Shown here: in pieces, positions 5,545 through 29,550 of the stretch
How the letters are laid out: every line of letters begins with the position of its first letter
Numbering within the stretch: the first letter of the stretch is position 1
Notes under the pieces: model-generated
Database searches by the model: none
What the model was told of the DNA's origin: nothing
What the model saw: the letters and a program-made list of their open reading frames with translations, nothing else
Assembly: GCA_049720225.1 (NCBI GenBank)
Contig: JBNASD010000001.1
Location: 293,217-357,216, forward strand
DNA: 64,000 nt
Direction: 5' to 3'
Source: Microgenomates group bacterium
Lineage (GTDB): Bacteria > Patescibacteriota > Microgenomatia > PFEM01 > JBNASD01
Position numbers and translations under genes: made by a program

Positions 5545-5547
5545 TTT

Positions 5548-6042: not shown

Positions 6043-6046
6043 TTTT

Positions 6047-7264: not shown

Positions 7265-7265
7265 T

Positions 7266-8135: not shown

Positions 8136-8141
8136 AAAAAA

Positions 8142-8813: not shown

Positions 8814-8833
8814 TTTATAATTTTGGGAATTAA

Positions 8834-9325: not shown

Positions 9326-9367
9326 TTTTCCTCCTTTTTATTTAAAAGGATATCACAAAAGTTAATC

Positions 9368-10393: not shown

Positions 10394-10761
10394 AATTCTT
10401 TTAAAACTGCTTTTTTAATTTCTTCCAATTGTTCTTGGGGAAGTTGTCTTAAAATTTCAATAATTTTTTCAGTTTCAATTTTTATTTCATTATTTTCTTT
10501 AGAGGAAGAGTTTTCCTCACTTTTCTTTAATTGCGGAATTTTTTCTTTTAGATTATTATTTTCAGGAATAATTTTTATCGCCTCACCTAAAACTTTTTCT
10601 CCCCAATCTTCTATTTTTCCCTTAATTTCTTCTGTGGGTAAAGAAACTGGTTTTTCTTTTTTTGCTCTTTGCCATTCAGAAAATACTTTAGGAAATAAAG
10701 AAAAAATTATTCCTCCCGCTAAAACTAAAATTATTATTCTTTTTATTCTTTCAAACCACAT
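10369..10761 (-). CDS. Hypothetical N-terminally anchored protein
   Basis: It has a single N-terminal TM and a charged E/K-rich tail. It overlaps the prfB start. Confidence 0.4.
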   Translation of the reverse strand: MWFERIKRIIILVLAGGIIFSLFPKVFSEWQRAKKEKPVSLPTEEIKGKIEDWGEKVLGEAIKIIPENNNLKEKIPQLKKSEENSSSKENNEIKIETEKIIEILRQLPQEQLEEIKKAVLKEFCQEVLKE

Positions 10762-10789
10762 AGGTTATAATTTATTATAATTCAAACAT

Positions 10790-13092: not shown

Positions 13093-13104
13093 TTTAAATT
13101 TATA

Positions 13105-14205
13105 TTATATCAAACATTCCAATTCTTTTAACATTCTCTGATTTTTTCTCAAAGAAAAATAATCCCTAGCCGGCTGAAGAATCTCAATTAAAGTTTCTGC
13201 CACCGCATTTTTCAAATCTTGAGGGTGGAGAGATTCATTTTCATAATCTTCTTTTAGTTTTTTAAAATTATCATAAATTACATCTCCACCATATTCTGCT
13301 AATCGTTTAACTTCTAATCTTCTTTTTAAAGGAAAAATTAAGTGTTTTGTCCAATCTAAAACCGGATTAAATTCCGTTTCCTTTGGAGGGCAAAAAGCAT
13401 TGTTAATTTTTTGACGAATTTCTTCTGGCGAATCATGAATAAAAACACAACTTTCTGGTTTTGATTTACTCATCTTCATTGATATCCAAACTTCCCGAAG
13501 CTTATCTTTCGGCACTGGCCAAATTGGTGGTTTTCCCAAACCTAATAAAATATGATTATGCAAAGCTACCGGTTTGTAGCCGGCAACTTTTTCTCCCACC
13601 TCTCTTGCCAATACATGGGCTTTTCGTTGATCCATTCCTCCATGGGCGATATCTACTTTAAGACCAAAAATATCGGTTACTTGTAAAGGAGGATAAAGCA
13701 TTAAACCAAACTCTACCGTTTCCCCTGCCTGACGACCAGCAATCGATAAAGATTTTTTTACTCGAGAAAGAGTTAATTCTTTACAAACTTTGACAAAAGT
13801 AACCCAATACTCATCGTTATGATGATATAAATCCGAACCTAAAACAAATTTTATTTTTTCCGGATCTCCACCAACGCATTTTAATGAGGCTTTTAAACCC
13901 TCTTTAAAATAACCAACCGCTACTTTTTTAATTACTTTCAAATCTCCGCCTAATTTATTATTAAGCCAAGTGTGCCAATCCGCCAATAAAATTATGCATT
14001 CTACCCCAAGATCCTGAAGTGTTTTCACTACCATCATTGTGGCTAAGCCAGTACCTAAATGAATCTTTCCGGAAATTTCAAAACCAATATAATGCCGAAG
14101 TTTCTTTTTTGATTTAAGAAAGGATTTTAAGTCTTCGGGGGTTAAAATTTCTTCGCAAACGGAGGAAATAATTTCAATCTTTCGCTCTAATTTTAAATTT
14201 TTCAT
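13105..14205 (-). CDS. tyrS: Tyrosyl-tRNA synthetase, archaeal/eukaryotic type
   Basis: The class I HIGH-type motif is GKIHLGT and the KMSKS motif is MKMSKSKP. There is a close block-by-block resemblance to archaeal TyrRS (IGFEISGKIHLG, DSPEEIRQKINNAFCP, LHPQDLKNAVAETLIEILQP). Confidence 0.8.
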   Translation of the reverse strand: MKNLKLERKIEIISSVCEEILTPEDLKSFLKSKKKLRHYIGFEISGKIHLGTGLATMMVVKTLQDLGVECIILLADWHTWLNNKLGGDLKVIKKVAVGYFKEGLKASLKCVGGDPEKIKFVLGSDLYHHNDEYWVTFVKVCKELTLSRVKKSLSIAGRQAGETVEFGLMLYPPLQVTDIFGLKVDIAHGGMDQRKAHVLAREVGEKVAGYKPVALHNHILLGLGKPPIWPVPKDKLREVWISMKMSKSKPESCVFIHDSPEEIRQKINNAFCPPKETEFNPVLDWTKHLIFPLKRRLEVKRLAEYGGDVIYDNFKKLKEDYENESLHPQDLKNAVAETLIEILQPARDYFSLRKNQRMLKELECLI

Positions 14206-14232
14206 TTTTAATTTTTAATTTTTAAATGATTT

Positions 14233-14318
14233 TGGTCCAGGGGGGAGGATTCGAACCTCCGCAGGCATACGCCGACGGTTTTACAGACCGTTCCGTTTGG
14301 CCACTCCGGCACCCCTGG
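14233..14318 (-). tRNA. tRNA-Tyr (anticodon GTA), type II with a long variable arm
   Basis: I folded it by eye on the reverse strand. The acceptor stem is CCAGGGG/CCCCTGG. The anticodon stem ACGGT/ACCGT holds the loop CTGTAAA. A long variable arm and the T-arm GGAGGTTCGAATCCTCC follow. Discriminator A and CCA are encoded. It lies directly downstream of tyrS. Confidence 0.85.
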
Positions 14319-14334
14319 GAATATTCTAATTTTA

Positions 14335-14739
14335 TCACACTAATCTCAATTTCTCCACTAATTCTTTTGCTTTTTCTGGTGGCAGTTGTTTTCTTTCTCC
14401 TAAAGCAAAAAGTTTTAGATTATAAGCGGAAGGCAAAAGATGAATATGAGCATGAGGAACTTCCGTTCCCCAAATTAAACTAGCCACAAATTCATCTTGA
14501 AATACTTTTTGGTAATGAACGGCAATTTTTTTTACTACTTCAAAATATCTTCCCAATTCTGGTACCTGCCAAACCCATTGATAATGCTTTTTAGGAATTA
14601 CTAAAGTATGGCCATCAACAAAAGGATTAATATCTAAAAAAGCCAAGAAATCTTTATCTTCGTAAATTTTCCAACAAAGAATTTCTCCGCTAACAATTTT
14701 ACAAAATATACAGTCTTTCATAAAAATTCCAATGTTCAA
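14335..14739 (-). CDS. HIT family (histidine triad) hydrolase
   Basis: It has CIFCKI, HTLVIPKKH and the HxHxH triad HAHIHLLP. Confidence 0.85.
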   Translation of the reverse strand: MNIGIFMKDCIFCKIVSGEILCWKIYEDKDFLAFLDINPFVDGHTLVIPKKHYQWVWQVPELGRYFEVVKKIAVHYQKVFQDEFVASLIWGTEVPHAHIHLLPSAYNLKLFALGERKQLPPEKAKELVEKLRLV

Positions 14740-14781
14740 ATACTCAAATATTAAAAAAACTAAAAAAATTATTTCAAAGTC

Positions 14782-15135
14782 TTACCTACTTTTATTTATG
14801 ATACTAGTAAAAATATACACAAATTCTTTCGCCTCTGCAATCAATGAATCAAATTCTTTTTCGAACCGATTAATACTCCTTTTTAAACCAAATAACCACA
14901 ATTGACATTCCTTTGCTTCTTTACGGGAAATTTTTACTTTATGAATGAAATCTTTTTTACTTTCACTTTCACTAGCTTCACACCAATTAGCTCCAATTGA
15001 ACCAGCGCTAGCAATTAATTGTTCTACTTGCCTTTTAGTAATAGGGTTTATAGGAATTTTCTTACAAAGATCAATTATTTTCTCAAAATAATTTTTTGTT
15101 CTTTCCTCTAAATCAAATTTTCTCTCTTTTTCCAT
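14782..15135 (-). CDS. Four-helix-bundle protein (23S rRNA intervening-sequence protein family)
   Basis: GSIGANWCEASESESKKDFIHKVKISRKEAKECQLWL matches the signature of this family. Confidence 0.75.
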   Translation of the reverse strand: MEKERKFDLEERTKNYFEKIIDLCKKIPINPITKRQVEQLIASAGSIGANWCEASESESKKDFIHKVKISRKEAKECQLWLFGLKRSINRFEKEFDSLIAEAKEFVYIFTSIINKSR

Positions 15136-16308: not shown

Positions 16309-16914
16309 ATGAATTTTCTTCAAAAAATTATCACCGGTTATTTAGCCGGCCTTTCAGTAGGAGTTTATTGCTTAGGAATTTGTTTGTCTGTTTTTTTACC
16401 AATATTACTTTCCCAAGAAAGAACTCCTAAAAAAAGTTTTTGGTTAGTAATTGAATTTTCTTTAGGAAGATTAATCGGTTATTTATTTTTTGGTTTAATT
16501 TTTGGTTGGTTAGGAGAAACTTTAAAAAGTGATTTCATTCATACTATTGTCTTATTAACTAATCTTTGGTTGGGAATTTTAATGATTCTTTATTCTTTAG
16601 GAACTATTAATCAAAAATTTTGCCCTGGAAAATTATTTAATAAATTAAAGTGGCCATTTTTATTGGGTTTTTTAACAGGAGTAAATATTTGCCCTCCTTT
16701 TTTAGCTTCTTTAACTTATGTTTTTAACTTAAAAAATGTCATTTTTTCTTTAATTTACTTTCTTTTTTTCTTTTTAGGAACAAGTACTTATATTATTCCA
16801 ACTGCTATTTTTGGTTTTACTACCAAAATAATTTTAATTCAAAAAATCGCCAAAATTGGAGGATTTTTAGCGGGATTTTATTTTGTTGCTCAAAGTTTGT
16901 TTAAAATAATTTAA
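16309..16914 (+). CDS. Integral membrane protein with 6 TM and TM cysteines; possibly CcdA/DsbD-like
   Basis: It is hydrophobic throughout. Cys sit within TM1 (VYCLGICLS) and a later TM (GVNICPPF). The family assignment is tentative. Confidence 0.4.
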   Translation: MNFLQKIITGYLAGLSVGVYCLGICLSVFLPILLSQERTPKKSFWLVIEFSLGRLIGYLFFGLIFGWLGETLKSDFIHTIVLLTNLWLGILMILYSLGTINQKFCPGKLFNKLKWPFLLGFLTGVNICPPFLASLTYVFNLKNVIFSLIYFLFFFLGTSTYIIPTAIFGFTTKIILIQKIAKIGGFLAGFYFVAQSLFKII

Positions 16915-17406
16915 CCGCTCAATTAGATGTAAAAAAGCTACCAATCCAAACACTATTCCCAACTGATCATGCCAAAAATAATAATTAGCAATTTTAATAT
17001 TCAAAAACAATAAAAATCCGCTAATTCCTACCGGTAAAAAAGAAGCCAAAAGGATTAAATTCCAAAATAACCGAAAATTTAGAGGAGAAAAAAATTTTTT
17101 AGTCAAAAAATAAGAAATTAAAATTAAAAAAACAATTATTAAAAAATTACCAACGGAAAAATTTCTTTCAGTTGAGGAATTTTTTATCGGTGAGGGAGGA
17201 GGTTCACTATGATCACAAATTTGGTTATTATTAGTATCAAGATAACGAGAGCATTGACCTGGATACGGATCATTAACTTCTCCAAACGGACAATCTAACC
17301 AAGCTTTAACCGGAGAGGCTAATAAAAATGTTAAAATTAAAAATATGAAAAAAAGCCTAATCGGGACAGGAATTATTGTCTTCGGCATTATTCTCTCCTT
17401 AATCAT
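16867..17406 (-). CDS. Hypothetical membrane protein with a Cys-rich extracytoplasmic segment
   Basis: It has a signal-peptide-like N-terminus, then CPFGEVNDPYPGQCSRYLDTNNNQICDHSE, then 3 TM. Its 5' end overlaps the radical SAM gene head-to-head, so one of the two starts is uncertain. Confidence 0.4.
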   Translation of the reverse strand: MIKERIMPKTIIPVPIRLFFIFLILTFLLASPVKAWLDCPFGEVNDPYPGQCSRYLDTNNNQICDHSEPPPSPIKNSSTERNFSVGNFLIIVFLILISYFLTKKFFSPLNFRLFWNLILLASFLPVGISGFLLFLNIKIANYYFWHDQLGIVFGLVAFLHLIERLNYFKQTLSNKIKSR

Positions 17407-18460
17407 TTTAGCAAAAACTCCTAAGGAAGAAAAATCCGCTTTAAAAAATCTTTACGAGGCTCAATTTTATCAACAATTAGAAAACGGTAAAGTTCAATGT
17501 AATCTATGTCCTAATCGCTGTTTATTGAGTTTAGGTCAAAGAGGGTTATGTAAAGTAAGAGAAAATATTGGCGGTAAACTTTACTCTTTAGTTTACGGAA
17601 AACCAGTCACTACCGCTGTTGATCCAATTGAAAAAAAACCATTTTATCATTTTTTACCAGGAGCCAAAACTTATTCTTTAGCAACTGCTGGTTGTAATTT
17701 AGCTTGTAAATACTGCCAAAATTGGGATATTGCTCAAAGATTTCCTGAAGATATCCAAACTATCCCAATGACTCCCCAACAGGTAGTTGAAGAGGCTTTA
17801 AAATCTGGTTCTCAGGTAATTGCTTTTACTTATAACGAACCAATTATTTGGTATGAATATATGTTAGATATTGCTAAATTAGCAAAAGAAAAAGGATTGC
17901 GAACAGTAATGATTTCTAATGGTTATATTAATCAACAACCATTGAAAGAAATTTTAAATTATTTAGATGCCGTTAAAATTGATCTTAAATCTTTTAATAA
18001 TGATACCTATATGAAACTAATTGGAGGCAAATTGGAACCAGTCTTAGAAAGCATTAAAACCGTTTATCAATCAGGAAAATGGTTAGAAATTGTTTGGCTA
18101 GTGGTTCCAGGATACACTGATAATTTAGAAGAAATAAAATCTGCCTGTAAATGGATTAAAGAAAATACTAGCGAAAATATTCCTATCCATTTTTCTCGCT
18201 TTTGGCCAAAATATAAGCTCACCAACCTTCCTCCTACTCCCGAAGAAACACTTAAAAAAGCAAGAAAAGTTTGTTTAGAAGTAGGAATGAAATATGTTTA
18301 TACGGGAAATATTGACGATGAAGAAGGAAGTATTACTTATTGCCCAACTAATAAAAAACCCTTAATTAAAAGAGTTGGTTACTTTATTAAGGAAAACTTA
18401 ATTAATCCGGAAGGAAAATCTCCCAATTGCCCAGAAATTATCCCCGGAGTTTGGCAATAG
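17345..18460 (+). CDS. amrS: AmmeMemoRadiSam system radical SAM enzyme
   Basis: It has the N-terminal accessory Cys cluster CNLCPNRC, the radical SAM motif CNLACKYCQNW and DPIEKKPFYHF. The predicted N-terminal TM anchor is unusual for this family. Confidence 0.8.
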   Translation: MKKSLIGTGIIVFGIILSLIILAKTPKEEKSALKNLYEAQFYQQLENGKVQCNLCPNRCLLSLGQRGLCKVRENIGGKLYSLVYGKPVTTAVDPIEKKPFYHFLPGAKTYSLATAGCNLACKYCQNWDIAQRFPEDIQTIPMTPQQVVEEALKSGSQVIAFTYNEPIIWYEYMLDIAKLAKEKGLRTVMISNGYINQQPLKEILNYLDAVKIDLKSFNNDTYMKLIGGKLEPVLESIKTVYQSGKWLEIVWLVVPGYTDNLEEIKSACKWIKENTSENIPIHFSRFWPKYKLTNLPPTPEETLKKARKVCLEVGMKYVYTGNIDDEEGSITYCPTNKKPLIKRVGYFIKENLINPEGKSPNCPEIIPGVWQ

Positions 18461-20330
18461 AAAGCAAACCTCCTAAAACAATCCCCCCTAAAAAAATTAA
18501 AACTCCTTTTACTCCCAATCCTGGCAAAAGAAAACTACTGGTTAAAATTGCTCCTAAAAATCCCCCAAATAAATCAAAAGCATAAATAAAACCGGGGTTT
18601 TTGTATTTTTTTAGATAATTTTTATTAATTAAAGCAAAAATCATTCCGCCAATAAATCCAATACCTAAAGCCAAAATTGGCCAAAAATTTACCTGATGAA
18701 TTAAAAATAAAAATGGTAAATAGCCCATAAACAAAATTTTCAATTTCCAATTTTCAATTTTCAAATATTTTTTCTCAATTACTCCCACCCCCAATCCTAT
18801 CCCTATCAAAACGGCGGCAAAAATTAAAGCAATTTGACTATAAAGATAACCAATTTTTGTTTGAAAAATAAAAATCAACAAAATCTCTAAACTTATTAAA
18901 ATAAAACTAGAAATGGCGACAGTCACTCCCCAATTAATTTTTCTAGAACCAAATAATAAAATTAAAAATAATAAAATCAACAAAAAAATAGGAATGATTT
19001 TTACTAATTTAATTAAATAAACTGGTAGCTTAAAACTAAAAATTGTTTGCCAAAAAAGTTGTTGATAGAAAAAAGCTGTAGGATTAAAATCATTATTTAT
19101 TTCTGCCGGTGTATTTTGAATTTTTTCTAAAATTTTTTGACGTCTTTGATTATCAATTTGATACCAAAAATAATCTTTAAATTGAAAGCTAATTTTTTCC
19201 TGATTAATTTTTAATTCTTCAAAACCAGCTAAAAAAATTAGCTGATCTTCAGGAGTTAATAACTCCAAAAAAGGAAAGGCTATTTTTAAAGTTTGATAAA
19301 GAGAACTAACAAATCTTGCTGCCTCCTCGCTTTGGTAGTCAGTCGGTGAATGAATAATTAAAGCAAATATTCCGTTTTTACTTAGTCGATTTTTGATTTT
19401 TTCAAAAGACTCATAGGTAAAGTAGCGGTTGGTTAACAAAGTTTGAGGATTGCCTAAAGAAAAAATAATTAAATTCCATTGTTGCCTATCATCATTTAAA
19501 AATTGTCTGGGGTCGCTGATAATCAAATCAATTCCGGGAATCAAAAGCTCTTTTTCTAAATTGGCAAGCTTTTCATCAATCTCTATAAAAATAATCTTTT
19601 CAGATAAAGATAACTTTTTAATTTCCGAAGCAATATTAGGATTACCAAATACCAAAATTTTTTTATCTTCTTTCACAAACGGTATAATTAAACTTAAAAT
19701 TTGTTTTGTTTCGTAACTTTCTTGATTAGTAAAAGCAAGTTGGCCACTAACAAAATAACTCCGTTGATTGTCTTGGTTATTAATAATTATTTGTTGGTAT
19801 TTAGAATTAATTACTTTTTCTAAACCAGGATATCGCCATTTCAAGCCAAAGGAAAAATTAATTGTTGCTAAAATAAAACTAAAAATTAATCCCCCAGCGG
19901 TAAAGCCAATTGTTTCCCAAAAGTAACCTAAATTAGGTCGCCAAAAACTCACTCCCAAAGCAAAAACTGCCCCCAAAAGAAAGCAAAAAATAAAAAGAGG
20001 CGGAAATATAACCATAAAAACAAAAATTGGATCTGGCAATTCTCCAAAAGAAACAAGTAGTCCCACTAGCCATCGCCAATAAATGATTAAAAGAGGCAAA
20101 AGAAAAACCAAAATTCCCAAAATTACCCAAAGAAATTTAAAATTTTTAAAAAATTTTTTAAATTTAATCCCAAACAATCCTCCTAATCCAGAAAATAACA
20201 TCCAACTTCCCAGTCCTAATCCATAAAACATCTCATTGCTATAAAAAAGGTTGGCAATTTCTCTCAAAATTAACGCTTGAGCCAAAATGGAAATTACCCC
20301 AAGAAGAAAAAAGAAGATGGGAAAAATCAT
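18438..20330 (-). CDS. Polytopic membrane protein with an embedded spermidine-synthase-like (SpeE fold) domain
   Basis: It has about 7 N-terminal TM and a central Rossmann-like block (IEIDEKL...LIISDPRQ...NLIIFSLGNPQTLLTNRYFTYESFEKIKNRLSKNGIFAL). The canonical GGGDGG is replaced by FGNPNI. More TM follow at the C-terminus. Confidence 0.45.
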   Translation of the reverse strand: MIFPIFFFLLGVISILAQALILREIANLFYSNEMFYGLGLGSWMLFSGLGGLFGIKFKKFFKNFKFLWVILGILVFLLPLLIIYWRWLVGLLVSFGELPDPIFVFMVIFPPLFIFCFLLGAVFALGVSFWRPNLGYFWETIGFTAGGLIFSFILATINFSFGLKWRYPGLEKVINSKYQQIIINNQDNQRSYFVSGQLAFTNQESYETKQILSLIIPFVKEDKKILVFGNPNIASEIKKLSLSEKIIFIEIDEKLANLEKELLIPGIDLIISDPRQFLNDDRQQWNLIIFSLGNPQTLLTNRYFTYESFEKIKNRLSKNGIFALIIHSPTDYQSEEAARFVSSLYQTLKIAFPFLELLTPEDQLIFLAGFEELKINQEKISFQFKDYFWYQIDNQRRQKILEKIQNTPAEINNDFNPTAFFYQQLFWQTIFSFKLPVYLIKLVKIIPIFLLILLFLILLFGSRKINWGVTVAISSFILISLEILLIFIFQTKIGYLYSQIALIFAAVLIGIGLGVGVIEKKYLKIENWKLKILFMGYLPFLFLIHQVNFWPILALGIGFIGGMIFALINKNYLKKYKNPGFIYAFDLFGGFLGAILTSSFLLPGLGVKGVLIFLGGIVLGGLLSIAKLRG

Positions 20331-20333
20331 AAT

Positions 20334-21797
20334 TTAATTATAAACCAATCTTCCTTCTACCTTTCTGAAAACATTTTGATTATTTCTCAACCATTCCTCC
20401 AAAACCTGTTGAGCCGAGGTGGTTACCACTTTTGATTTTCCCGAGGCTAAAAGTTCTTCTTGAGTAATATTTAAATAAGAGGCGCAGTTATTAAAATGAT
20501 ATCCTTGCATACAGATAGTATAAAATTTGGTTTTGTCGATTGGCACTCCATCAATAGCTAAAGAAACTAACCGATGTTCTTCGTCAGAATAAATGGCGCG
20601 CACTTTTCCATTTACCTGATAACATTCTCCCTCCCCATTACGATTTTCCGTTCGCATAATATGAGAAAAAATTTTTTCCAGTTGAGCGCCGGTAATTGTA
20701 AATCGATGCAATACATCATCATAGGGAAAACAGGCTAATAAATCTTTCAGCGTCACCGCCGGTCCCAATTGAGTTGCTCTTATTGAACCGCTTCCTACCA
20801 GCATTACATCACATTCTGCCACTTCCGCAAAAGCATCGGCAATCAAATTACCCAAAGAAGTTTCGACTTCTCTTTTAGGATGGGTAAGTGTCTGGGAAAA
20901 CTTACATAAAATCACATTATATTTTCTATCAACTTCTTTTTGAAAACTTAAAATATAATCTTCAAGCTTTTTATCGGGTTTGGCTAATTTATTATCAATT
21001 GGAATCAGTTGCCATTTATAGTCAACAACGCTATTGGTATCATCATCAACCAAAATATCAAATCTTCCAATCTGATTCGTTCCCACTCCTGCTTGGGCAA
21101 TTAAAATATTATTTACTTTTACTGGCTTATCTAAAATCGTATGGGAATGACCGCCAATAATCATATCCACTCCCCATTCCGGCCGAAGCAGTCTTGCCAA
21201 CTTTATATCCTCTTCAAATCCAATATGAGTTAACAAAATCGTCAAATCAATATCATCATTTTTATAAGCATTACAAATTTTTCCTACTTCTTTACTTGCT
21301 TCTTCTACTCCCACAAAAGTACCAATTAGTTTATCTTGTTTGATGGAATCTAAAATTTTTTCGGTAATAATTCCCGTAAACAAAATATCAAATCCCGCTT
21401 TTTTCAAAATTAAATAAGGAAGTAAAAGCCGACGATTGTTTTTAATGATATATAAATTGGCATTTACTAAGGGAAAATTAGCCATTTTCTCCAAAAACAA
21501 AAGATGAGGTAAACCATAATCAACTTCATGATTACCAATTGCCACCACATCCGGCGCTAAATAATTCATAATTTCAATAGTCGAGCAACCTTTCCATTCG
21601 GTATCAATCAACGAGCCCTGAAGCATATCACCGGAAATAACATACAAAACATTTTCCTCTTCTTTTCTAACTTTATTGATATACCCCGAAAGTAAAGCTA
21701 ATCCCCCAATCAACTCTTTTTTCCCGGCTTGAATTTCCGCCAAAAAATCCCCATGCATATCATTGGAATGAAGAATAGTAAATTTCTTAGTTTTCAT
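20334..21797 (-). CDS. Bifunctional metallophosphatase/5'-nucleotidase family protein
   Basis: The calcineurin-like motifs are DMHGD, GNHEVDYG and GGHSH. It also has a 5'-nucleotidase C-terminal domain. There is no signal peptide. Confidence 0.8.
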   Translation of the reverse strand: MKTKKFTILHSNDMHGDFLAEIQAGKKELIGGLALLSGYINKVRKEEENVLYVISGDMLQGSLIDTEWKGCSTIEIMNYLAPDVVAIGNHEVDYGLPHLLFLEKMANFPLVNANLYIIKNNRRLLLPYLILKKAGFDILFTGIITEKILDSIKQDKLIGTFVGVEEASKEVGKICNAYKNDDIDLTILLTHIGFEEDIKLARLLRPEWGVDMIIGGHSHTILDKPVKVNNILIAQAGVGTNQIGRFDILVDDDTNSVVDYKWQLIPIDNKLAKPDKKLEDYILSFQKEVDRKYNVILCKFSQTLTHPKREVETSLGNLIADAFAEVAECDVMLVGSGSIRATQLGPAVTLKDLLACFPYDDVLHRFTITGAQLEKIFSHIMRTENRNGEGECYQVNGKVRAIYSDEEHRLVSLAIDGVPIDKTKFYTICMQGYHFNNCASYLNITQEELLASGKSKVVTTSAQQVLEEWLRNNQNVFRKVEGRLVYN

Positions 21798-21802
21798 GAA
21801 CT

Positions 21803-22774
21803 TTAAAGTTTAATCAATTTTTCTAACCATGGAACATGCTTATTTTTTCTTTTCCACCAAATATCTTCCCAAACATAATGAACCGCCAATGCTTTCCACT
21901 TTCCCCATTTTTCAAAAAATTTTAACATTTTTTCTACTGGAACTAATTCTTTTTCGTAATCTTTATTAAAAAAAATTTTGGTATAAATTTTCTGCTCCCA
22001 AGGAGAAATATGATTTAAATAATCCCAATGGTGAAAGACATCAACCATAATATAATTTAATGTTGCTGGGACAACGCCATACAAAGAAAGCAATGTTTCC
22101 TCCTGTTTCTCTTTACTTTCCTTTCTTAATTTTAACCCATCCACCACACCATTAGCAAAGGGTTGGGAAATTTTGATTAAAGATTTTGCCCGATATCCAA
22201 CCTTAAGATTTCTTAACTCCTCCTCTCCAGTATTTGCTAAAATTTCCGGCTCCCAAAAACACCAAAGCTTTTGCTCGCCATATTCAAGCAAACTACCATA
22301 TTTTTCAAAAAGAGTCTGAAGCATACTCACACTTCTTTTTACGGTGGCGTTTTGTAACACAATCCCAATAATTAAGTATTCATAAAGAGAACCGGCATGC
22401 ATTGGCCGAAGACCAGAAAATTTTTTAATAATCGGGGCTAAAATGTGGTCTTTTTCTACCTTTTTATAAAAACTCTTTAAATCTAAATCTAAATTGAACC
22501 GCCAAATAATCTCTTTTTTTAAAGTCTTATAAAATTCGGACGATAAACTCTTTGCGGAAAATACTCTTATTTTTATTTTTGGTTTTGTTTTTATACCAGA
22601 ATCTTCGTAAATTAACCCTAATTTTTCTCCTTTCCATAACATTGTTTGCCATCTTTTCCCTGGTTCCCATTGGCAATCTCCGCTAGGAAAATGGTCAGGT
22701 TTATAAAAAGTTAAATCAAAACTAAAAGGATAGGTAGGAATAATTTCCAAAACTTTTTGATATTTTAATTTCAT
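21803..22774 (-). CDS. HhH-GPD superfamily DNA glycosylase-like protein (Ogg/AlkA-like)
   Basis: A helix-hairpin-helix region with VGYRAKSLIKIS resembles the GYRA motif of Ogg/AlkA enzymes. The assignment is tentative. Confidence 0.45.
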   Translation of the reverse strand: MKLKYQKVLEIIPTYPFSFDLTFYKPDHFPSGDCQWEPGKRWQTMLWKGEKLGLIYEDSGIKTKPKIKIRVFSAKSLSSEFYKTLKKEIIWRFNLDLDLKSFYKKVEKDHILAPIIKKFSGLRPMHAGSLYEYLIIGIVLQNATVKRSVSMLQTLFEKYGSLLEYGEQKLWCFWEPEILANTGEEELRNLKVGYRAKSLIKISQPFANGVVDGLKLRKESKEKQEETLLSLYGVVPATLNYIMVDVFHHWDYLNHISPWEQKIYTKIFFNKDYEKELVPVEKMLKFFEKWGKWKALAVHYVWEDIWWKRKNKHVPWLEKLIKL

Positions 22775-22793
22775 TTTTACCCTTCAAAGATAT

Positions 22794-24167
22794 TTACTTT
22801 CTCCAGTGAATATGTTTAATTTGAACTAATTCCATAAAGCCAAACTCTCCATGTTCTCTTCCTATTCCGCTTTTTTTATAACCTCCAAAGGGACATGAGG
22901 GAAAGAAAAAACTGTCGGTATTAACTGAAATTGTTCCTGCCTGAATTTGAGAAGCTACTTCTTTAGCTAATCTTCTGTCTGAGGTATAAATCTCCGCACT
23001 TAATCCATAGATGGTATCATTAGCGATTCTTATTGCTTCTTCTTTATCCTTAAAGGGTAAAATTGGTAATACAGGACCAAAAACTTCCTCCTTGTACACC
23101 CGCATATTCTTTTTAATATTAACTAAAAGAGTTGGTTCAAAGAAAGCACCATTAAAACCATCTGGTTTTTTTCCTCCAGCTATAATTTTTGCACCCTTTT
23201 TTACTGCATCTTTTACTTGGCACTCTAAAATTTCTAATTGTTTTTTAGAGATTAAACTTCCCATTTCTGTTTCCGGATTTAAAGGATCCCCGATTTTGAC
23301 TTTTTCTACCCGAGATTTAAGTTTCTCTACTACTTTTTCAAATATTGATTTTTCAACCAAAAGTCTTTTAATTGCCGTGCATACTTGACCGCAATTCAAA
23401 AAACGACCAGTATATATTTCTTCTATAGCATTATCTAAATTAGCATCGGCAAAAACAATTGCTGGACTACTTCCTCCCAATTCTAAAACTGCTTTTATGA
23501 ATTTTTTTCCCACTTTTTGATAAATTTCTTGACCGGCAGCCGAGCTTCCGGTAAACCAAATTAAATCTATCTGACTATCTACTAACTTTTTTCCTACTTC
23601 TTCATTGCCAAAAACAATATTAAATACTCCCTCTGGTAAACCTACCTGGTTAAGCAAATCCCCTAAAAATTTACCGGTTAAGGGTGTTTCTTCTGACGGC
23701 TTGAAAACTACCGTATTTCCCACTAAAAGATTAGGAACAATCCCCCAAATTGGTAAATCTAAAGGAAAATTCCATGGGGTAATTACCGCCGTAACTCCAT
23801 AGGGTTCAAAAACCAATTCACTTTTACCTCCACCATCTTCAAATAAAACTCTTTTTGGAAGAAATTTTAGGGCTTCCTTTAAAAAATAATTAAAATATTT
23901 TTGGTCAAACTCAACTTCATCGTAGGCTTCCCTTATTGGTTTACCTGTTTCTAAAGTGATTAATTTAGCTATTTTTTCTTTATTATTTAAAATCAAATTT
24001 TTAATTTTTTTTAAAATTTTTATTCGGTTTTCAAGCGATATTTTTCTCCATTTTTCTTTAACTTCATGTGCTTTTTCCACACATAAACCAATTTCTTTAT
24101 CAGAGGAAACTTTAACTTTTCCTATTACCTCGTAATTTTTTGCCGGATTAGTAGAATAAAGAAACAT
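22794..24167 (-). CDS. NAD(P)+-dependent aldehyde dehydrogenase
   Basis: It has ELGGSSP, the catalytic Cys context FLNCGQVCTA, and EEVFGPVLPI. Confidence 0.9.
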   Translation of the reverse strand: MFLYSTNPAKNYEVIGKVKVSSDKEIGLCVEKAHEVKEKWRKISLENRIKILKKIKNLILNNKEKIAKLITLETGKPIREAYDEVEFDQKYFNYFLKEALKFLPKRVLFEDGGGKSELVFEPYGVTAVITPWNFPLDLPIWGIVPNLLVGNTVVFKPSEETPLTGKFLGDLLNQVGLPEGVFNIVFGNEEVGKKLVDSQIDLIWFTGSSAAGQEIYQKVGKKFIKAVLELGGSSPAIVFADANLDNAIEEIYTGRFLNCGQVCTAIKRLLVEKSIFEKVVEKLKSRVEKVKIGDPLNPETEMGSLISKKQLEILECQVKDAVKKGAKIIAGGKKPDGFNGAFFEPTLLVNIKKNMRVYKEEVFGPVLPILPFKDKEEAIRIANDTIYGLSAEIYTSDRRLAKEVASQIQAGTISVNTDSFFFPSCPFGGYKKSGIGREHGEFGFMELVQIKHIHWRK

Positions 24168-24267
24168 CAGAAAATTTTAACAAAAAACTCTAAAGATTTC
24201 ATCAGAGTAATTAGGACACATAGCAAGGTTAATTTCTTTAACTCCATTTGCTATAATCAAGCTGTGA

Positions 24268-25791
24268 ATGAAAAAATTTTTTTGGATAGGGGGCATAATA
24301 TTTTTGGTAGGAATTTTGGGTTTGCCGATTTGGTTTATTAAAAATAAATCAAAAGAAATGGAAAATAAGAAATCTGCAAAAACTATTCGTTTACCCGCCG
24401 TTGCCGGTGCTTTTTATCCAGCAGAAAAAGAAATTTTAGACTCCCAAATCTCTACTTTAATCAATCAAAGTAAGAAAATTTCTGAAGAGGGAAAATTAAG
24501 GATTTTAATTGTGCCTCATGCAGGAATTCAATATTCCGGACCAACCGCTGCCGCTGGATTTAAACAAATTGAAGGTCAAGATTATAAAAAAGTAATAATT
24601 TTAGGAGCCAGTCACCGGGCTTGGTTTAACCATGCCGCTGTTTTTAGTCAAGGAGTTTGGGAGACTCCCTTAGGCCAAGTAGAAATTGACCAAAATTTAG
24701 CGGAAGAAATTTTGGGAGAAAAAATTATTGCCGATGAAAATCCCCATCTTTCAGAACATTCCTTAGAAGTAGAATTAATTTTTCTTCAAAAAGTTTTAAA
24801 AAATTTCAAAATTGTTCCTATTTTAGTTAGTCAAACCAGCGAAGAATTAATTAATAATTTAGCTGAAAAAATCGCCCAAAATTTTGACGACCAAACCTTA
24901 TTAGTAGTTTCTACTGATTTATCTCATTATCCTCCTTATGAAATTGCCAAAAAGGTAGATAACCAGACTATCGAGGCAATTTTAACTGGAGATTTAGAAA
25001 AATTTAACCAAACAGTTTCTCAATTAGAATCCGCAGGTTATCCCGGTTTAGAAACTGCCATTTGTGGACAAGAAGCCGTTAAAGTTGGTTTGGTAGTTGG
25101 AAAAATTTTAGGTGTTAATTGGCAAAAAATTAAATACGAAAACTCCGGCGATACTGCCGGAGAAAAAAACCAAGTAGTAGGATATGTCGCCATTGGTGGA
25201 TGGAGCAAAACTCTTCCTTTAAAAGAGGAATCTTCTTCCGCTGATTATCTTAATGAAGAAGAAAAAAAACAAGCTTTAGAAATTGCCCGAAAAACATTGG
25301 AAGAATATCTTAATAACGGTAAAATCCCCTCTTTAACTTCTTCACTTCCTGGTTTATCAAAACCGTTAGGTTGTTTTGTCACTCTTCGTAAACATGGAGA
25401 GCTCCGTGGTTGTATTGGCGAATTTGAACCAAAAGAACCGCTTTATAAAGTAATTCAACGAATGGCAATTGCCGCCGCTACCGAAGACCCTCGTTTTCCT
25501 CCAGTAAAGGCGAAAGAATTAAAAGAGATTAAAATTGAAATTTCGGTAATGACCCCAAAAAGAAAAATTGATGATTGGAAAAAAATTGAATTAGGAAAAC
25601 ATGGAGTGGTTATTCAAAAAGGTTTTCGCTCTGGCACATTTTTACCGCAAGTAGCAACAGAAACGGGTTGGGGTTTGGAAGAATTTTTATCTCAACTTTG
25701 CTGGCAAAAAGCCGGTTTACCACCTGACTGTTACAAAGATCCTTCGGTTAATCTTTATGTTTTTGAAGCCCAAGTTTTTGAAGAAGATTAA
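24268..25791 (+). CDS. Fusion of Memo-like (AmmeMemoRadiSam protein B) and AMMECR1 (protein A) domains, with an N-terminal TM anchor
   Basis: The N-terminus has a TM. Memo motifs follow (ILIVPHAGIQYSGPTAA, GASHRAW). The C-terminal AMMECR1 motifs are GCFVTLRKHGELRGCIG and FRSGTFLPQVA. Confidence 0.8.
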   Translation: MKKFFWIGGIIFLVGILGLPIWFIKNKSKEMENKKSAKTIRLPAVAGAFYPAEKEILDSQISTLINQSKKISEEGKLRILIVPHAGIQYSGPTAAAGFKQIEGQDYKKVIILGASHRAWFNHAAVFSQGVWETPLGQVEIDQNLAEEILGEKIIADENPHLSEHSLEVELIFLQKVLKNFKIVPILVSQTSEELINNLAEKIAQNFDDQTLLVVSTDLSHYPPYEIAKKVDNQTIEAILTGDLEKFNQTVSQLESAGYPGLETAICGQEAVKVGLVVGKILGVNWQKIKYENSGDTAGEKNQVVGYVAIGGWSKTLPLKEESSSADYLNEEEKKQALEIARKTLEEYLNNGKIPSLTSSLPGLSKPLGCFVTLRKHGELRGCIGEFEPKEPLYKVIQRMAIAAATEDPRFPPVKAKELKEIKIEISVMTPKRKIDDWKKIELGKHGVVIQKGFRSGTFLPQVATETGWGLEEFLSQLCWQKAGLPPDCYKDPSVNLYVFEAQVFEED

Positions 25792-26759
25792 TGAGTAAAA
25801 GAAAGTTTCTTCTTTTTTTAGTTTTTGGGGGATTAATTTTTGGGATTTTTTTAATTTTCTCTTATAAAAAATTATCATTTTCCTCCGTTAAAAATTTTAA
25901 ATATTCTTTTAATCAATTTTCTCCAACTTCTTCGCCGACTAAACTTCCAATAATTACTTTAATTGCTGTGGGCGACGTGATGTTAGGAAGAACAATAAAC
26001 TATCACTCTGTCAAAAACAATAATTTTACCTGGATGTGGGAAAAAACGGTTAATGAGCTTCGGTCGGCAGATTTAACTTTAATTAATTTAGAATCGCCGC
26101 TAGTAGAAAATTGTCCAGTTACTACCTCAGGAATGATTTTTTGCGGAGACCCAAAAAATATTGAAGGTTTAAAGTTCGCCGAAATTGATTTAGTTAATTT
26201 AGCTAATAATCATATCGCCAATTATGGGAAGAAAGGAATTGAAAATACTATCAACTTACTCAATGGTGCCAATATCGTTCCAATTGGTACTAATACTCCA
26301 GTTTATAAAAATATAAAAGGCATTAAATTTGCTTTTTTAGGCTATAGTGATTTTGCGGTGCCCCAAGAAATTTCTCAAGTAAAAAAAGAAAAAATAATTC
26401 AAGAAATTGCTCAAGCTAAAACTCAAGCAGATATCATAATTATCTCTTTTCATTGGGGAGAAGAATATACCAATCAACCTACTTCTCGCCAAAAAGAGTT
26501 AGCTTATCTTGCCATAGATTCTGGAGCAGATTTAGTCATCGGCCACCATCCCCACTGGATTCAACCCGAAGAATTTTATAAAGAAAAACTAATTGTTTAC
26601 AGTTTAGGCAATTTTATTTTTGACCAATTTTGGTCAGAAAAAACTACCCAAGGATTATTAGGAAAATTTATTTTTGAAGGAAAAAAATTAGTTTCTTATC
26701 AATTAATTCCTATAAAAATTATCCCTCCTGGTCAACCTACTTTAGAAAATTTTCCATAA
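25791..26759 (+). CDS. CapA/PgsA family (PGA_cap) metallophosphatase-like protein
   Basis: It has an N-terminal TM and the motifs VGDVMLGR, ANNHIANYG, HWGEEYT and DLVIGHHPHW. Confidence 0.8.
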   Translation: MSKRKFLLFLVFGGLIFGIFLIFSYKKLSFSSVKNFKYSFNQFSPTSSPTKLPIITLIAVGDVMLGRTINYHSVKNNNFTWMWEKTVNELRSADLTLINLESPLVENCPVTTSGMIFCGDPKNIEGLKFAEIDLVNLANNHIANYGKKGIENTINLLNGANIVPIGTNTPVYKNIKGIKFAFLGYSDFAVPQEISQVKKEKIIQEIAQAKTQADIIIISFHWGEEYTNQPTSRQKELAYLAIDSGADLVIGHHPHWIQPEEFYKEKLIVYSLGNFIFDQFWSEKTTQGLLGKFIFEGKKLVSYQLIPIKIIPPGQPTLENFP

Positions 26760-27175
26760 AGCTGAGTTTTTATCTCTTTTTCGTCTTTTTCAGCTAAAAC
26801 TTCAATCCCTTGACTTTTTAAATAATTTTTCAATTCAGAAGAAATTTTTAAAGAATTTTTAAAAATATCCAAAATCGCCGTAGGTAAATCATCACCCGCA
26901 ATTCGGTTGATAGAAATTTTTCCGCAAATTTTACACTGATGAACAATCATAATTTCTCCTTGACGAGGTTTGCCAGTAAATTTATCAATTCCTTCTTTTT
27001 TAAAAGTTAAAGCAATCGGCGTCATCAATCCCCCACAAAAAGCTTTTCTATCTCCTGATTTTTTATCCAAATGTTTTGACCATAAACAAAAAGGACAGTG
27101 ATTACGATGGGCAGTTCCCAAAGCTTTAAGAGGTACTTCCTTACCGCAATTTTCGCAAATAAATTTACCTTTCAT
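26732..27175 (-). CDS. RNHCP domain protein
   Basis: It has CENCGK...RNHCPFCLWSKH...CGGLM...CKICG, a zinc-ribbon-like RNHCP signature. Confidence 0.7.
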   Translation of the reverse strand: MKGKFICENCGKEVPLKALGTAHRNHCPFCLWSKHLDKKSGDRKAFCGGLMTPIALTFKKEGIDKFTGKPRQGEIMIVHQCKICGKISINRIAGDDLPTAILDIFKNSLKISSELKNYLKSQGIEVLAEKDEKEIKTQLYGKFSKVG

Positions 27176-27914
27176 AAAAAATTCCTACAGGAATTTTTCC
27201 TTGTCCGTCTTCATAATTCCATTCTTCCGCTTTTTCTAAAGCTTCACATAAATTTTTGGCTGGTTTTTCTAATTCATAAACTCTTTGGTTGTAATCTTGA
27301 AAAGTGTTAAAAAAAACTAAACAAGGTTGAAGAATATCTATAAACGCAAATCCATTATAAAAAAGGGCTTTTTTAATTAATGAAAATAAATGATCCGGTT
27401 TCCCCACATATCCGCGAGCAACAAAACCTGCTCCTACGGAAATCATTAATTTTAGCGGATTTATCGGTAACTCTTTACTTCCTTCTGGGGTAGATTTTCC
27501 TTTAAAACCTAACGGTGAAGTGGCAGTAAACTGACCAGTCGTTAAAGCAAAAGTCCGATTATCATGAACCAAAACCACCATGGGAATATTTCTTTTTGCG
27601 GCATGAATTAAATGTTCTATTCCCTCATTGTAAGCATCACCATCACCAACACTTACTATTACCTTTAAATTAGGATTGGCAATTTTAATTCCTGTTGCCA
27701 CCGCCACTCCCCGTCCATGCAAAGCATAAAAACTGTTAATATTTAAATAATCCGCCATTTTTCCGTGGCAACCAATCCCGGTAACCAAAACAAAATTTTC
27801 CCGACCAATTTCTTTTTCTGTCTCTTCAATTAATTTTTTTAAAGTATTTAAAATCAAAAAATTTCCACACCCGGGACACCAAGTTTTTAAGGTATTAGTT
27901 TCTAAGTTGTTCAT
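27165..27914 (-). CDS. korB: 2-oxoacid:ferredoxin oxidoreductase, beta (TPP-binding) subunit
   Basis: It has WCPGCGNF and the TPP-binding GDGDAYNEG, and sits next to the alpha subunit. Confidence 0.85.
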   Translation of the reverse strand: MNNLETNTLKTWCPGCGNFLILNTLKKLIEETEKEIGRENFVLVTGIGCHGKMADYLNINSFYALHGRGVAVATGIKIANPNLKVIVSVGDGDAYNEGIEHLIHAAKRNIPMVVLVHDNRTFALTTGQFTATSPLGFKGKSTPEGSKELPINPLKLMISVGAGFVARGYVGKPDHLFSLIKKALFYNGFAFIDILQPCLVFFNTFQDYNQRVYELEKPAKNLCEALEKAEEWNYEDGQGKIPVGIFYER

Positions 27915-29550
27915 CTAACTCCTCTGGCCAAAATGGTCGGCCATCATATTTTAATATAACTTTATCAACTTTAATCCCAAATGCAGGTAAAAGATTAGCT
28001 AACTGACCTAACAAATTGTTTTCCGCAACGATTATTTTTTCTACTCCCTTCAGTGCTTCTTTCATTTGTTTTTCAGGAAAGGGTTGAAGAATTACTGGTT
28101 GAACTAATTTTAACCCTTGTCTTTCGGCAACTTCTAAAGCTACTCCTTTTACTGAACCCCAAACAATTAAAGCTTTTTTACTTTCTTTATTTCCATAAAT
28201 ATTAACCGCTGGTAATTTTTCTAATGCTTTTTTCATTAAATTAAATTTTCTTAATCGCTTTTCCTGCATTTTTTTAATTAATTCTGCGTCTTCGGTGGCA
28301 ATTCCTTGTTCGGTATGTTCATAGCCTGTAACTTTTATTACTTTATCTTTTTCTCCCGGAAAGGCTAAGGGAGAAACTCCTTGGGGAGTATCTTGATACC
28401 GTAAGTAATTAGTTTGACTTTTTGCTAAAAGTGGGGGGCGAATTTTAATTTTCTTAAAAACTTCTTTATCTACGGAAAAGGTACTCTCGGAAATTTGTTT
28501 ATCTACTAATAAAATTACCGGCGTTTGATACTCCCACGCTAAATTTAGTCCTTCACCCGCCCAAAAACAAGCTTCTTCTCCATCTCCTGGAGCAATCACA
28601 AAACGTAAAAAATCACCGTGTCCTGCTCCCAACACAAAATTCAAATCTGATTGAGAAGTATAAGTAGGAACCCCGGTAGAAGGACCACCTCTTTGAGACT
28701 CAATAATTAATAATGGAATTTCCGCCTGAGCAGAAAAACTTAATCCCTCTGTCATTAAAGCAAAACCACCCCCAGAAGTTCCAACCGCCGTTCTTGCCCC
28801 AGCAAAACTTGCTCCCAAAGCGGCGTTAATTACCGCTATTTCACTTTCTAATTGAAATACCTTTAAATCTTTTTTCTCGGCTAAAAAATGTAAAATTCCT
28901 GTCGCTGGCGTCATTGGATAGGCAAAATAACAATCTAAACCCGCCTTTATCATCCCTAGACTAATTGCCTCATTGCCAGTAAGAAGAGCTGTTTCTTGAG
29001 AAGAAAAAACTTTAATCTTTTTTAATGGCTTCGAAGAATCAAAAGCTCTTTTAGCAATTTTAATATTTTTTTCTTCTGTTTCTCCCTTAAATTCTTCTTT
29101 TAAAATTTTTTCCAAAAATTCCCACCTAATTCCCAAAACCCTTCCCACTGCACCAATTAAGGCGGTATTTTTCATTAAAGGAATTCCTTTTTCCTCTTTT
29201 ACCCACTGTTCTAACGGCAAACCCAAACCGGAAAATTTTTCATTGACTACATTAATTACCGAAGAATCATATATCAAAATACCATTTTCCTTTAATTCTT
29301 TTTGATGGTAATCAATTGTTTTTCTATCAAGCGCTAAAAGTAAATCCAAAGAGGGAGAAACACTAAGAATTTTCTTTCTGCTTGCTCTAATTAAAGAAAA
29401 ATTATGCCCTCCTCGAATTAACGATTGATAATCATCATAAATAAAAATTCGATAGCCAATTGAAGAAAGAAGTTTCCCTAAAATTAATCCCGCTTTCCGG
29501 GAGCCTTGACCAGCTTCTCCACCAATAAGAAGAGTTAACTCCTCCATCAT
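27895..29550 (-). CDS. korA: 2-oxoacid:ferredoxin oxidoreductase, alpha subunit with an N-terminal gamma-like domain
   Basis: The N-terminus has GGEAGQGS (gamma domain). The alpha core has GNEAISLGMIKAG, YFAYPMTPATGI and GFALMTEGLS. Confidence 0.85.
   Translation of the reverse strand: MMEELTLLIGGEAGQGSRKAGLILGKLLSSIGYRIFIYDDYQSLIRGGHNFSLIRASRKKILSVSPSLDLLLALDRKTIDYHQKELKENGILIYDSSVINVVNEKFSGLGLPLEQWVKEEKGIPLMKNTALIGAVGRVLGIRWEFLEKILKEEFKGETEEKNIKIAKRAFDSSKPLKKIKVFSSQETALLTGNEAISLGMIKAGLDCYFAYPMTPATGILHFLAEKKDLKVFQLESEIAVINAALGASFAGARTAVGTSGGGFALMTEGLSFSAQAEIPLLIIESQRGGPSTGVPTYTSQSDLNFVLGAGHGDFLRFVIAPGDGEEACFWAGEGLNLAWEYQTPVILLVDKQISESTFSVDKEVFKKIKIRPPLLAKSQTNYLRYQDTPQGVSPLAFPGEKDKVIKVTGYEHTEQGIATEDAELIKKMQEKRLRKFNLMKKALEKLPAVNIYGNKESKKALIVWGSVKGVALEVAERQGLKLVQPVILQPFPEKQMKEALKGVEKIIVAENNLLGQLANLLPAFGIKVDKVILKYDGRPFWPEELDEQLRN

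Follow-up and report, generated by a model that had tools for sequence, protein, structure and literature searches.

A candidate five-gene, membrane-bound variant of the AmmeMemoRadiSam system in a Microgenomates genome

The 64,000-nucleotide stretch of a Microgenomates group bacterium analysed here (contig JBNASD010000001.1, positions 293,217 to 357,216; hereafter the window) encodes a radical S-adenosylmethionine (SAM) enzyme and a Memo-AMMECR1 fusion protein of the AmmeMemoRadiSam system. Our analysis favours, with a probability of roughly 0.6, the reading that these two proteins belong to a five-gene membrane-bound variant of that system, which would be signal-anchored and extracytoplasmic and would have its own transmembrane electron supply. 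The weight of the finding lies in the comparative data, not in the fusion or in the gap between the two genes, both of which had been described in an earlier note on this DNA. The features concerned are the following, with positions given in the window and with transmembrane abbreviated as TM and open reading frame as ORF.

16309..16914, plus strand: DsbD_2-family six-TM membrane protein, 201 aa (PF13386, 61.4 bits; cut-off 24.9)
16867..17388, minus strand: MJ0753_N/DUF4405-type membrane protein (the 'opposing ORF'), 173 aa from the second ATG; the ORF reaches 17406
17345..18460, plus strand: AmmeMemoRadiSam radical SAM enzyme, 371 aa (TIGR04337)
17357..17413, plus strand: N-terminal hydrophobic helix of the radical SAM enzyme, residues 5-23, preceded by MKKS; predicted uncleaved signal anchor
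18438..20330, minus strand: SpeE-like polytopic membrane protein, 630 aa (Pfam Spermine_synth, 28.3 bits)
24268..25791, plus strand: Memo-AMMECR1 (protein B-protein A) fusion, 507 aa (TIGR04336, TIGR04335, PF01875, PF01871)
24277..24339, plus strand: N-terminal hydrophobic helix of the fusion, residues 4-24, preceded by MKK; predicted signal anchor
24388..25194, plus strand: Memo domain of the fusion, residues 41-309
25270..25779, plus strand: AMMECR1 domain of the fusion, residues 335-504

Core proteins and their leaders

Both core reading frames were found where the earlier note had placed them, and the family assignments pass the cut-offs of TIGR04337, TIGR04336 and TIGR04335. The radical SAM enzyme scored 374.8 bits against TIGR04337 (cut-off 220) over residues 40-370, and its CX3CX2C motif (C117, C121 and C124; PF04055, 80.5 bits) is invariant in an alignment of 31 sequences, as are four extra N-terminal cysteines (C52, C55, C59 and C69). 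The enzyme is predicted to hold at least one [4Fe-4S] cluster, and probably two. For the fusion, the Memo half scored 248.7 bits against TIGR04336 (cut-off 26) and 222.9 bits against Pfam Memo, and the AMMECR1 half 190.5 bits against TIGR04335 (cut-off 99) and 199.9 bits against Pfam AMMECR1. The AMMECR1 motif LRGCIG and the Memo His/Asp motifs PHAG and DLSH are present, and the nearest solved structures are PH0010 (1vaj, 1e-39) and human MEMO1 (8e-18).

As had been noticed before, both proteins open with MKK and a hydrophobic stretch of about 20 residues. In a hydropathy scan that covered, for each protein, the 120 best homologues, with identity down to about 55%, the helix was kept in 117 homologues of the radical SAM enzyme, nearly all of which begin M-[KR]-[KR], and in 85 homologues of the fusion. 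The basic pair ahead of the radical SAM helix was found in 100 of the 120 close homologues, as KK in 72, KR in 19, RK in 9 and RR in 0. In relatives of the fusion from the candidate phyla radiation (CPR), a lipobox stands in place of the helix (P0064, P0078, P0084, P0089, P0116 and the fusion of locus L001), while the window fusion has a leader without cysteine, in which the lipobox L-x-[GAS]-C is not present.

These helices would lose their meaning if the true starts lay downstream and the hydrophobic segments were untranslated, an annotation artefact which we regard as scarcely credible. In its favour are the overlap of about 44 nt between the 5' end of the radical SAM gene and a real gene on the other strand, and the lack of a clear Shine-Dalgarno sequence ahead of 17345. 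Against it, no in-frame ATG, GTG or TTG occurs within about 60 codons past 17345, so that a downstream start would cut the conserved domain, which begins 16 residues past the helix, or would need a non-canonical codon. In addition, homologues with identity down to about 58% share these starts and helices, and the 117 that keep the helix and the MKK start include a protein from the L002 genome, where the opposing gene is absent. The downstream-start refutation that the earlier note had allowed for is thus not borne out. The overlap to which it had pointed is real, but it does not undermine the radical SAM start, and the two ORFs are genuine divergent genes.

For the wider family we used 83 loci, comprising the best 80 tblastn matches among those listed and three loci obtained earlier, a biased sample that was searched with the proteins of the window. 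The 80 distant loci came from a contig scan with the radical SAM alignment, with one genome per species and identities all at or below 52%, and served as an outgroup; they are from Omnitrophota, Bacteroidota, Desulfobacterota, Acidobacteriota, Nitrospirota, Planctomycetota, methanogens and others, with no Microgenomates among the matches listed. Leader classes (twin-arginine or Tat, Sec/TM, none) were assigned by a heuristic regular expression and a hydropathy scan, applied to ORFs that had been lengthened to their first start codon. The counts below are approximate because the Tat expression mis-scored some leaders: those of L005 and L019 resemble Sec leaders, and the T-R-K variants of L042 and L059 were scored as 'none'.

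Radical SAM leader Tat: 45 loci; SpeE-like neighbour in 27; DsbD_2 neighbour in 0
Radical SAM leader Sec/TM: 12 loci; SpeE-like neighbour in 9; DsbD_2 neighbour in 7
Radical SAM leader none: 26 loci; SpeE-like neighbour in 4; DsbD_2 neighbour in 0

The results showed that leaders are present on 57 of the 83 radical SAM enzymes and, as Sec, lipobox or TM leaders, on 31 of the 36 fusions, with four fusions leaderless and one truncated, and the earlier description of the system as normally soluble is wrong for this branch. Tat leaders on the radical SAM enzyme were found in most diderm phyla (examples are MTLTRRAFVQGSAAMIAAAALG, MNRRGFLRGTAGAGVALGAG and ITRRDFLKRSALVALGG), and with the curated Tat-signal model TIGR01409 five of ten sampled radical SAM leaders were over the cut-off and two slightly under. 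The Sec/TM leaders belong to CPR, Omnitrophota, one Auribacterota and one Chlamydiota, and the leaderless enzymes to all archaea and some bacteria. Leader ends seen among the fusions include LVPGC, FPAGC, LLNSC, IPLGC and ...AFA|Y, and loci with a leaderless fusion lack the SpeE-like gene. Genuine periplasmic redox systems show, by analogy, this pattern of a Tat leader for the cofactor enzyme and a Sec or lipoprotein leader for its partner.

The neighbours of the radical SAM gene also varied with its leader. A SpeE-like neighbour accompanied 36 of the 57 leader-bearing enzymes in comparison to 4 of the 26 leaderless ones (Fisher p=5e-5), and at least two of those four (L042 and L059) are T-R-K-E-F-L Tat variants missed by the regular expression. 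A DsbD_2 gene was found only beside Sec/TM-type enzymes, in 7 of 12 loci in comparison to 0 of 45 for Tat and 0 of 26 for leaderless enzymes (Fisher p=1.9e-7), and the thiol-type carrier is thus confined to enzymes predicted not to be exportable in a pre-folded state. In one Auribacterota and one Chlamydiota metagenome-assembled genome (L016:1744-3435 and L052:5585-7252, respectively), a gene for a protein of about 560 aa that joins DsbD_2, FMN_bind and two Fer4_5 modules of the NapH/NosR type is located directly upstream of the gene for a TM-anchored AmmeMemoRadiSam radical SAM enzyme. FMN_bind domains are extracytoplasmic. These DsbD_2, FMN_bind and Fer4_5 neighbours suggest that the slot on the radical SAM side repeatedly holds carriers of reducing equivalents across the membrane.

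The fusion itself, which had been presented as a special feature, was found to be the rule among bacteria of this branch: Memo and AMMECR1 form one ORF in 36 of the 83 loci and are apart in 2 (L023 and L080), and the JGI annotation for such proteins already reads 'protein B/protein A'. Locus L041 (10001-12406) carries a single 801-aa ORF that comprises radical SAM, Memo and AMMECR1 domains, without a leader and without a SpeE-like neighbour, and this triple fusion argues that the three domains work as one physical complex. In L088 (11075-12707) the only called ORF is a 183-aa AMMECR1 protein, and about 1 kb of uncalled sequence at the Memo position may be what is left of a disrupted fusion gene.

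A further difference among the radical SAM enzymes was seen at the C-terminus, where a zinc-ribbon-like CxxC...CxxC motif (residues 333-362, window 18341-18430) is nearly universal in the family. The ribbon is kept in the Tat-type, the leaderless and most of the Omnitrophota enzymes among the loci compared (L005-L083). Only two of its cysteines are left in 117 of 119 CPR-type homologues and in the enzymes of L001-L004, where a DsbD_2 gene is close by. With this reduction the CPR-type enzymes may have adapted to being exported with no metal site assembled beforehand.

Membrane partners of the core genes

The CPR-type comparison covered eight loci, with the window counted in. The gene order in these loci is DsbD_2, MJ0753_N/DUF4405 (minus strand), radical SAM, SpeE-like (minus strand) and Memo-AMMECR1, with flanking genes that change from locus to locus. 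The SpeE-like gene was found in eight of the eight loci, DsbD_2 in seven of eight, directly upstream of the radical SAM gene, and MJ0753_N in five of eight, and in L087 a NapH-type Fer4_5 membrane protein takes the DsbD_2/MJ0753_N position. In L001, DsbD_2 and radical SAM are a single polypeptide (P0240, 545 aa), with the fusion gene next to it. The relatives thus share a recurrent set, in which the DsbD_2 gene and the opposing gene are linked genes that the earlier note had missed.

It could be argued that only the radical SAM and fusion genes are linked and that DsbD_2, MJ0753_N and the SpeE-like gene adjoin them through shared ancestry. The SpeE-like and MJ0753_N genes are indeed on the opposite strand and are not co-transcribed with the core genes, and TsaD is also kept upstream in close relatives, which demonstrates that plain synteny exists in this region. 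We nevertheless consider such coincidence highly improbable, since a SpeE-like neighbour of the radical SAM gene was found in all eight CPR-type loci and in 40 of the 83 loci (Omnitrophota, Bacteroidota, Desulfobacterota, Acidobacteriota, Nitrospirota and others), in the latter with varying order and orientation, L001, L086 and L087 retain the set despite different flanks, DsbD_2 is physically fused to the radical SAM enzyme in P0240, and the presence of partners tracks the type of leader.

The SpeE-like gene is convergent with the radical SAM gene, which it overlaps by 23 nt. An alignment-based AlphaFold model of its product (pLDDT 91.7, pTM 0.91) gave five TM helices, a globular domain at about residues 160-430 and seven further TM helices; this 5+7 layout was taken from the model, as TM5 escaped the automated hydropathy scan. 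A Foldseek search with the model placed the aminopropyltransferases 1uir, 3anx and 6bq2 on top with TM-scores of 0.65-0.69, the globular domain alone being matched. The K/R-rich loops of the protein (58-63, 521-526, 576-578 and the C-terminus) are all opposite the globular domain, and the same holds across 24 family members, from which the domain is predicted to be outside. The protein was rejected as a spermidine synthase: in alignment with 2b2c the loop for decarboxylated SAM (dcSAM) changes from GGGDGG to G-NPN and the segment with the catalytic aspartates from D-S-S-D-P to S-L-G-N-P, and the TIGR00417 score was 35.6 bits, below 249.55. Residues E250, D252 and D273 are conserved or invariant in the family, and we take E250/D252 and D273 to align with the ribose and adenine contacts of spermidine synthase, so that the protein may still bind an adenosyl ligand.

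The opposing ORF was called as a gene with PF27309 (MJ0753_N) in L085, L086 and L088, with a weak DUF4405 match. Homologue starts (MPKT and MIPKT) align with the second ATG, at 17388, and AAGGAG is located 5 nt ahead of it. The possibility that this ORF is spurious was rejected, as full-length homologues with 62% and 57% identity are present in L084 and L085, respectively, and the family counts 668 cluster representatives at E<=1e-3. The protein is laid out as a signal peptide (...SPVKA|W), a Cys-rich ectodomain with the motif WLDCPFG..NDPYPGQC..YLDTNNNQICD, and three TM helices with conserved histidine. Some homologues of 250-350 aa (P0338 and P0348-P0353) carry the Cys-rich module (CP[FY]G..NDPYPG.C..Y.D.N.N..CD.SE) four times in tandem, which suggests an independent metal- or cluster-binding unit. 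Small homologues with DUF4405 only were found between the fusion and the SpeE-like gene in the Bacteroidales loci L056 and L078. The DsbD_2 protein of the window has cysteines in TM1 (VYCLGIC) and TM4 (NICPPF) and is a putative transmembrane thiol/disulfide electron carrier.

Orientation of the anchors and proposed mechanism

The earlier note had taken the two helices as tethers of cytoplasmic enzymes. Membrane association proved to be informative, but we prefer, by inference, signal anchors to tethers. The N-in/C-out orientation is favoured because of the DsbD_2-radical SAM fusion, the CPR lipoboxes, and the location of the helices at the position of the export signals of other phyla. In P0240 the radical SAM domain comes after TM6 of DsbD_2, with TM6 occupying the position of the helix, and the K/R residues number 10 in loops 1, 3 and 5, in comparison to a total of 1 for loops 2 and 4 plus the N-terminus. 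These loop charges predict that both DsbD_2 termini face outward, and both termini are outside in the DsbD/CcdA topology.

The alternative is that the helices are reverse signal anchors (N-out, C-in) which hold cytoplasmic enzymes at the inner face of the membrane, where the SpeE-like protein and a membrane-borne substrate would be close. We judge this unlikely, although it deserves serious weight, and several observations that speak for it also weigh against export. The K/R residues near the anchors number about 2 before the helix (1.8 for the fusion) in comparison to 2.8 (radical SAM) and 3.8 (fusion) in the 15 residues after it; these positive-inside counts are ambiguous or mildly C-in and were not used as evidence for either topology. 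The window anchors carry KK rather than RR and are not of the Tat type, as the radical SAM enzyme begins with MKKSLIG and the Tat motif S/T-R-R-x-F-L-K is absent from it, and the case for export of the window proteins draws on leaders seen in homologues. Tethering at the inner face would also remove the need for external SAM supply and cluster assembly, with cytoplasmic SAM, Fe-S assembly and ferredoxin or flavodoxin at hand, whereas for the outer face we know of no SAM source and of no mechanism for the extracellular [4Fe-4S] assembly that a Sec-exported CPR or Omnitrophota enzyme would need. The potentials of DsbD-type thiol/disulfide couples are, in addition, too high for direct reduction of a radical SAM cluster. 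To our knowledge every characterised radical SAM enzyme is cytoplasmic. This includes those of the HXS system, in which modification takes place in the cytoplasm and the product is exported afterwards, and HXS was rejected as a precedent for a periplasmic radical SAM enzyme on this ground.

Tethering at the inner face leaves four observations unexplained, namely the lipoboxes in the CPR relatives of the fusion, the junction of the radical SAM enzyme to a six-TM DsbD_2 domain with an N-out/C-out topology, the restriction of DsbD_2 to enzymes with non-Tat leaders, and the Tat or Sec leaders at the same positions in other phyla. It also has to contend with a SpeE-like ectodomain that is predicted outside. 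As to the charges, the neighbouring CapA/PGA_cap protein has the same pattern (MSKRK-helix-YKKLSFSSVKNFK), and proteins of the PgsA/CapA type are externally exposed. The K-rich flank is thus shared by an exported CapA-like protein, in a Lys-rich genome in which the GC content of the window is 32%.

Under the extracytoplasmic reading, the two MKK-helix N-termini would be uncleaved signal anchors in the N-in/C-out orientation, and the radical SAM enzyme, the Memo-AMMECR1 fusion and the SpeE-like ectodomain would come together at the outer side of the cytoplasmic membrane. There the radical SAM enzyme, which resembles the activase of pyruvate formate-lyase (PFL), would reductively cleave SAM, with electrons that would cross via the DsbD_2 protein, the MJ0753_N/DUF4405 protein or both, a task which NapH/NosR-type Fer4_5 and FMN_bind modules would carry out at the same genomic position in other lineages. 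The enzyme would then modify or activate Memo-AMMECR1, which in turn would act on an envelope- or lipid-bound substrate. As the most speculative step, the SpeE-like protein might supply or remove an adenosyl cofactor or product (SAM or 5'-deoxyadenosine) or might present the substrate.

For the branch as a whole, we hold more tentatively, at somewhat less than even odds, that the system works outside the cytoplasm, with a Tat-exported enzyme and a Sec-dependent lipoprotein or periplasmic partner in diderms and surface-anchored proteins in CPR, while membrane modules would export electrons and the SpeE-like protein would handle an adenosyl cofactor or a lipid-linked substrate. Such a system would, as far as we know, be the first of the radical SAM type outside the cytoplasm. 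Because SAM, a low-potential reductant and a cluster sensitive to oxygen are all required, radical SAM chemistry has been assumed to be cytoplasmic. That assumption would, if the reading is true, be overturned by a radical SAM enzyme that is exported through Tat and has an electron supply of its own across the membrane, and this would raise the questions of how SAM is supplied and how Fe-S clusters are assembled outside the cell for the Sec-type forms of CPR and Omnitrophota.

Known systems and flanking genes

The window passes all three models of AmmeMemoRadiSam (TIGR04335, TIGR04336 and TIGR04337), a system of unknown function whose genes are linked in the relatives. It differs from the textbook version of three soluble proteins in that proteins A and B are fused, both proteins are anchored and predicted to be extracytoplasmic, and three conserved membrane partners (SpeE-like, DsbD_2 and MJ0753_N/DUF4405) are added; the C-terminal ribbon of two cysteines likewise sets its CPR clade apart from AmmeMemoRadiSam radical SAM enzymes in general. 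The nearest characterised and solved radical SAM family is that of the PFL-activating and other glycyl-radical activating enzymes (3c8f, E=3e-13), a kinship which suggests protein-directed H-abstraction chemistry, although the TIGR02493 (PFL-activase) score of 89.3 bits is under the cut-off of 231.75. Unlike the cytoplasmic PFL-activating enzyme, the window enzyme has an N-terminal four-Cys motif and a C-terminal extension, and no glycyl-radical enzyme was found nearby or in any other locus examined.

The domains of the fusion are homologous to human MEMO1 and AMMECR1 and to archaeal PH0010, which are separate, soluble and intracellular proteins, whereas the window has one polypeptide with a leader. 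As in the Tat-exported Fe-S redox enzymes (NapGH, NosR/NosZ and Rieske-type), homologues of the radical SAM enzyme have a twin-arginine leader and co-encoded Fer4_5, FMN_bind or DsbD-type proteins; none of those enzymes is a radical SAM protein, and the window enzyme has KK and a long helix in place of an RR leader. The SpeE-like protein joins a polytopic domain to an aminopropyltransferase fold, like the fused MFS/spermidine synthase (NF037959) and the membrane-bound polyamine aminopropyltransferases (PRK03612), with scores under the cut-offs of both (17.3 versus 40 and 34.6 versus 472, respectively). It differs from them in the place of its globular domain, which sits between TM5 and TM6 and is predicted outside, and in having other residues at the Gly-rich dcSAM loop and at the catalytic aspartates.

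Conservation of Memo and AMMECR1 extends from archaea to humans, in whom MEMO1 is connected with cancer cell motility and AMMECR1 with an X-linked syndrome. An exported and anchored bacterial version with defined membrane partners would narrow the search for the substrate to the envelope or membrane and offer concrete partners, and, if the extracytoplasmic reading is true, the ancestral chemistry of the MEMO1 and AMMECR1 relatives would be envelope or lipid modification. Retention of the five-gene set in small CPR genomes would likewise point to an unrecognised cell-surface function. Extended Memo-AMMECR1-radical SAM contexts were reportedly described by Burroughs et al. 2019, who are said to have tied Memo to the modification of nucleotide bases and aliphatic isoprenoids, a link that would suit a membrane substrate, and part of the leader and partner findings may already be in print there. 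Our literature search, with that work outside its coverage, found no functional study of the AmmeMemoRadiSam system and nothing that links AMMECR1 or this radical SAM enzyme to Tat, lipoproteins or the periplasm.

The core genes of the window are not adjacent, as had been described; they are 5.8 kb apart. In L001 they are adjacent or overlapping, and in L002, L003 and L086 they are split by the SpeE-like gene alone. The genes in between were correctly named before, but the SpeE-like gene, then treated as one of them, is a partner of the system. The others are as follows.

20334..21797, minus strand: 5'-nucleotidase/UshA-like, local cargo
21803..22774, minus strand: HhH-GPD/Ogg-like (glycosylase-like), local cargo
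22794..24167, minus strand: aldehyde dehydrogenase, local cargo

These three genes were considered as members of the system and rejected, since no related locus contains them. Between the SpeE-like gene and the fusion, L002, L003 and L086 have nothing, L085 has a GT4 glycosyltransferase (8457-9623), and L084 has about 9 kb (5389-14910) that include a Transposase_20 gene. Because the content of this slot varies in this way, the separation of about 6 kb is explained as a conserved SpeE-like partner plus local cargo, and the slot behaves like a hot spot for insertions. In L087 (9309-10416) a nitroreductase and a metallophosphoesterase were found between the radical SAM enzyme and the fusion.

Downstream of the fusion, the PGA_cap/CapA-like gene (window 25791-26759, plus strand) starts at the last base of the fusion stop codon, and its product has a basic N-terminus and a TM helix; L002 and L003 also have PGA_cap genes close to the system, there on the opposite strand. 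Beyond the locus, at window 26732-29550 on the minus strand, are an RNHCP-domain gene and two genes for 2-oxoacid:ferredoxin oxidoreductase subunits. The same trio is located past the fusion in L085, and POR genes likewise lie past it in L086, which may be plain synteny or may represent a nearby low-potential electron source. The sole RNA gene detected in the 64 kb by ARAGORN and Rfam is a tRNA-Tyr(GTA) gene at window 14233-14318 on the minus strand.

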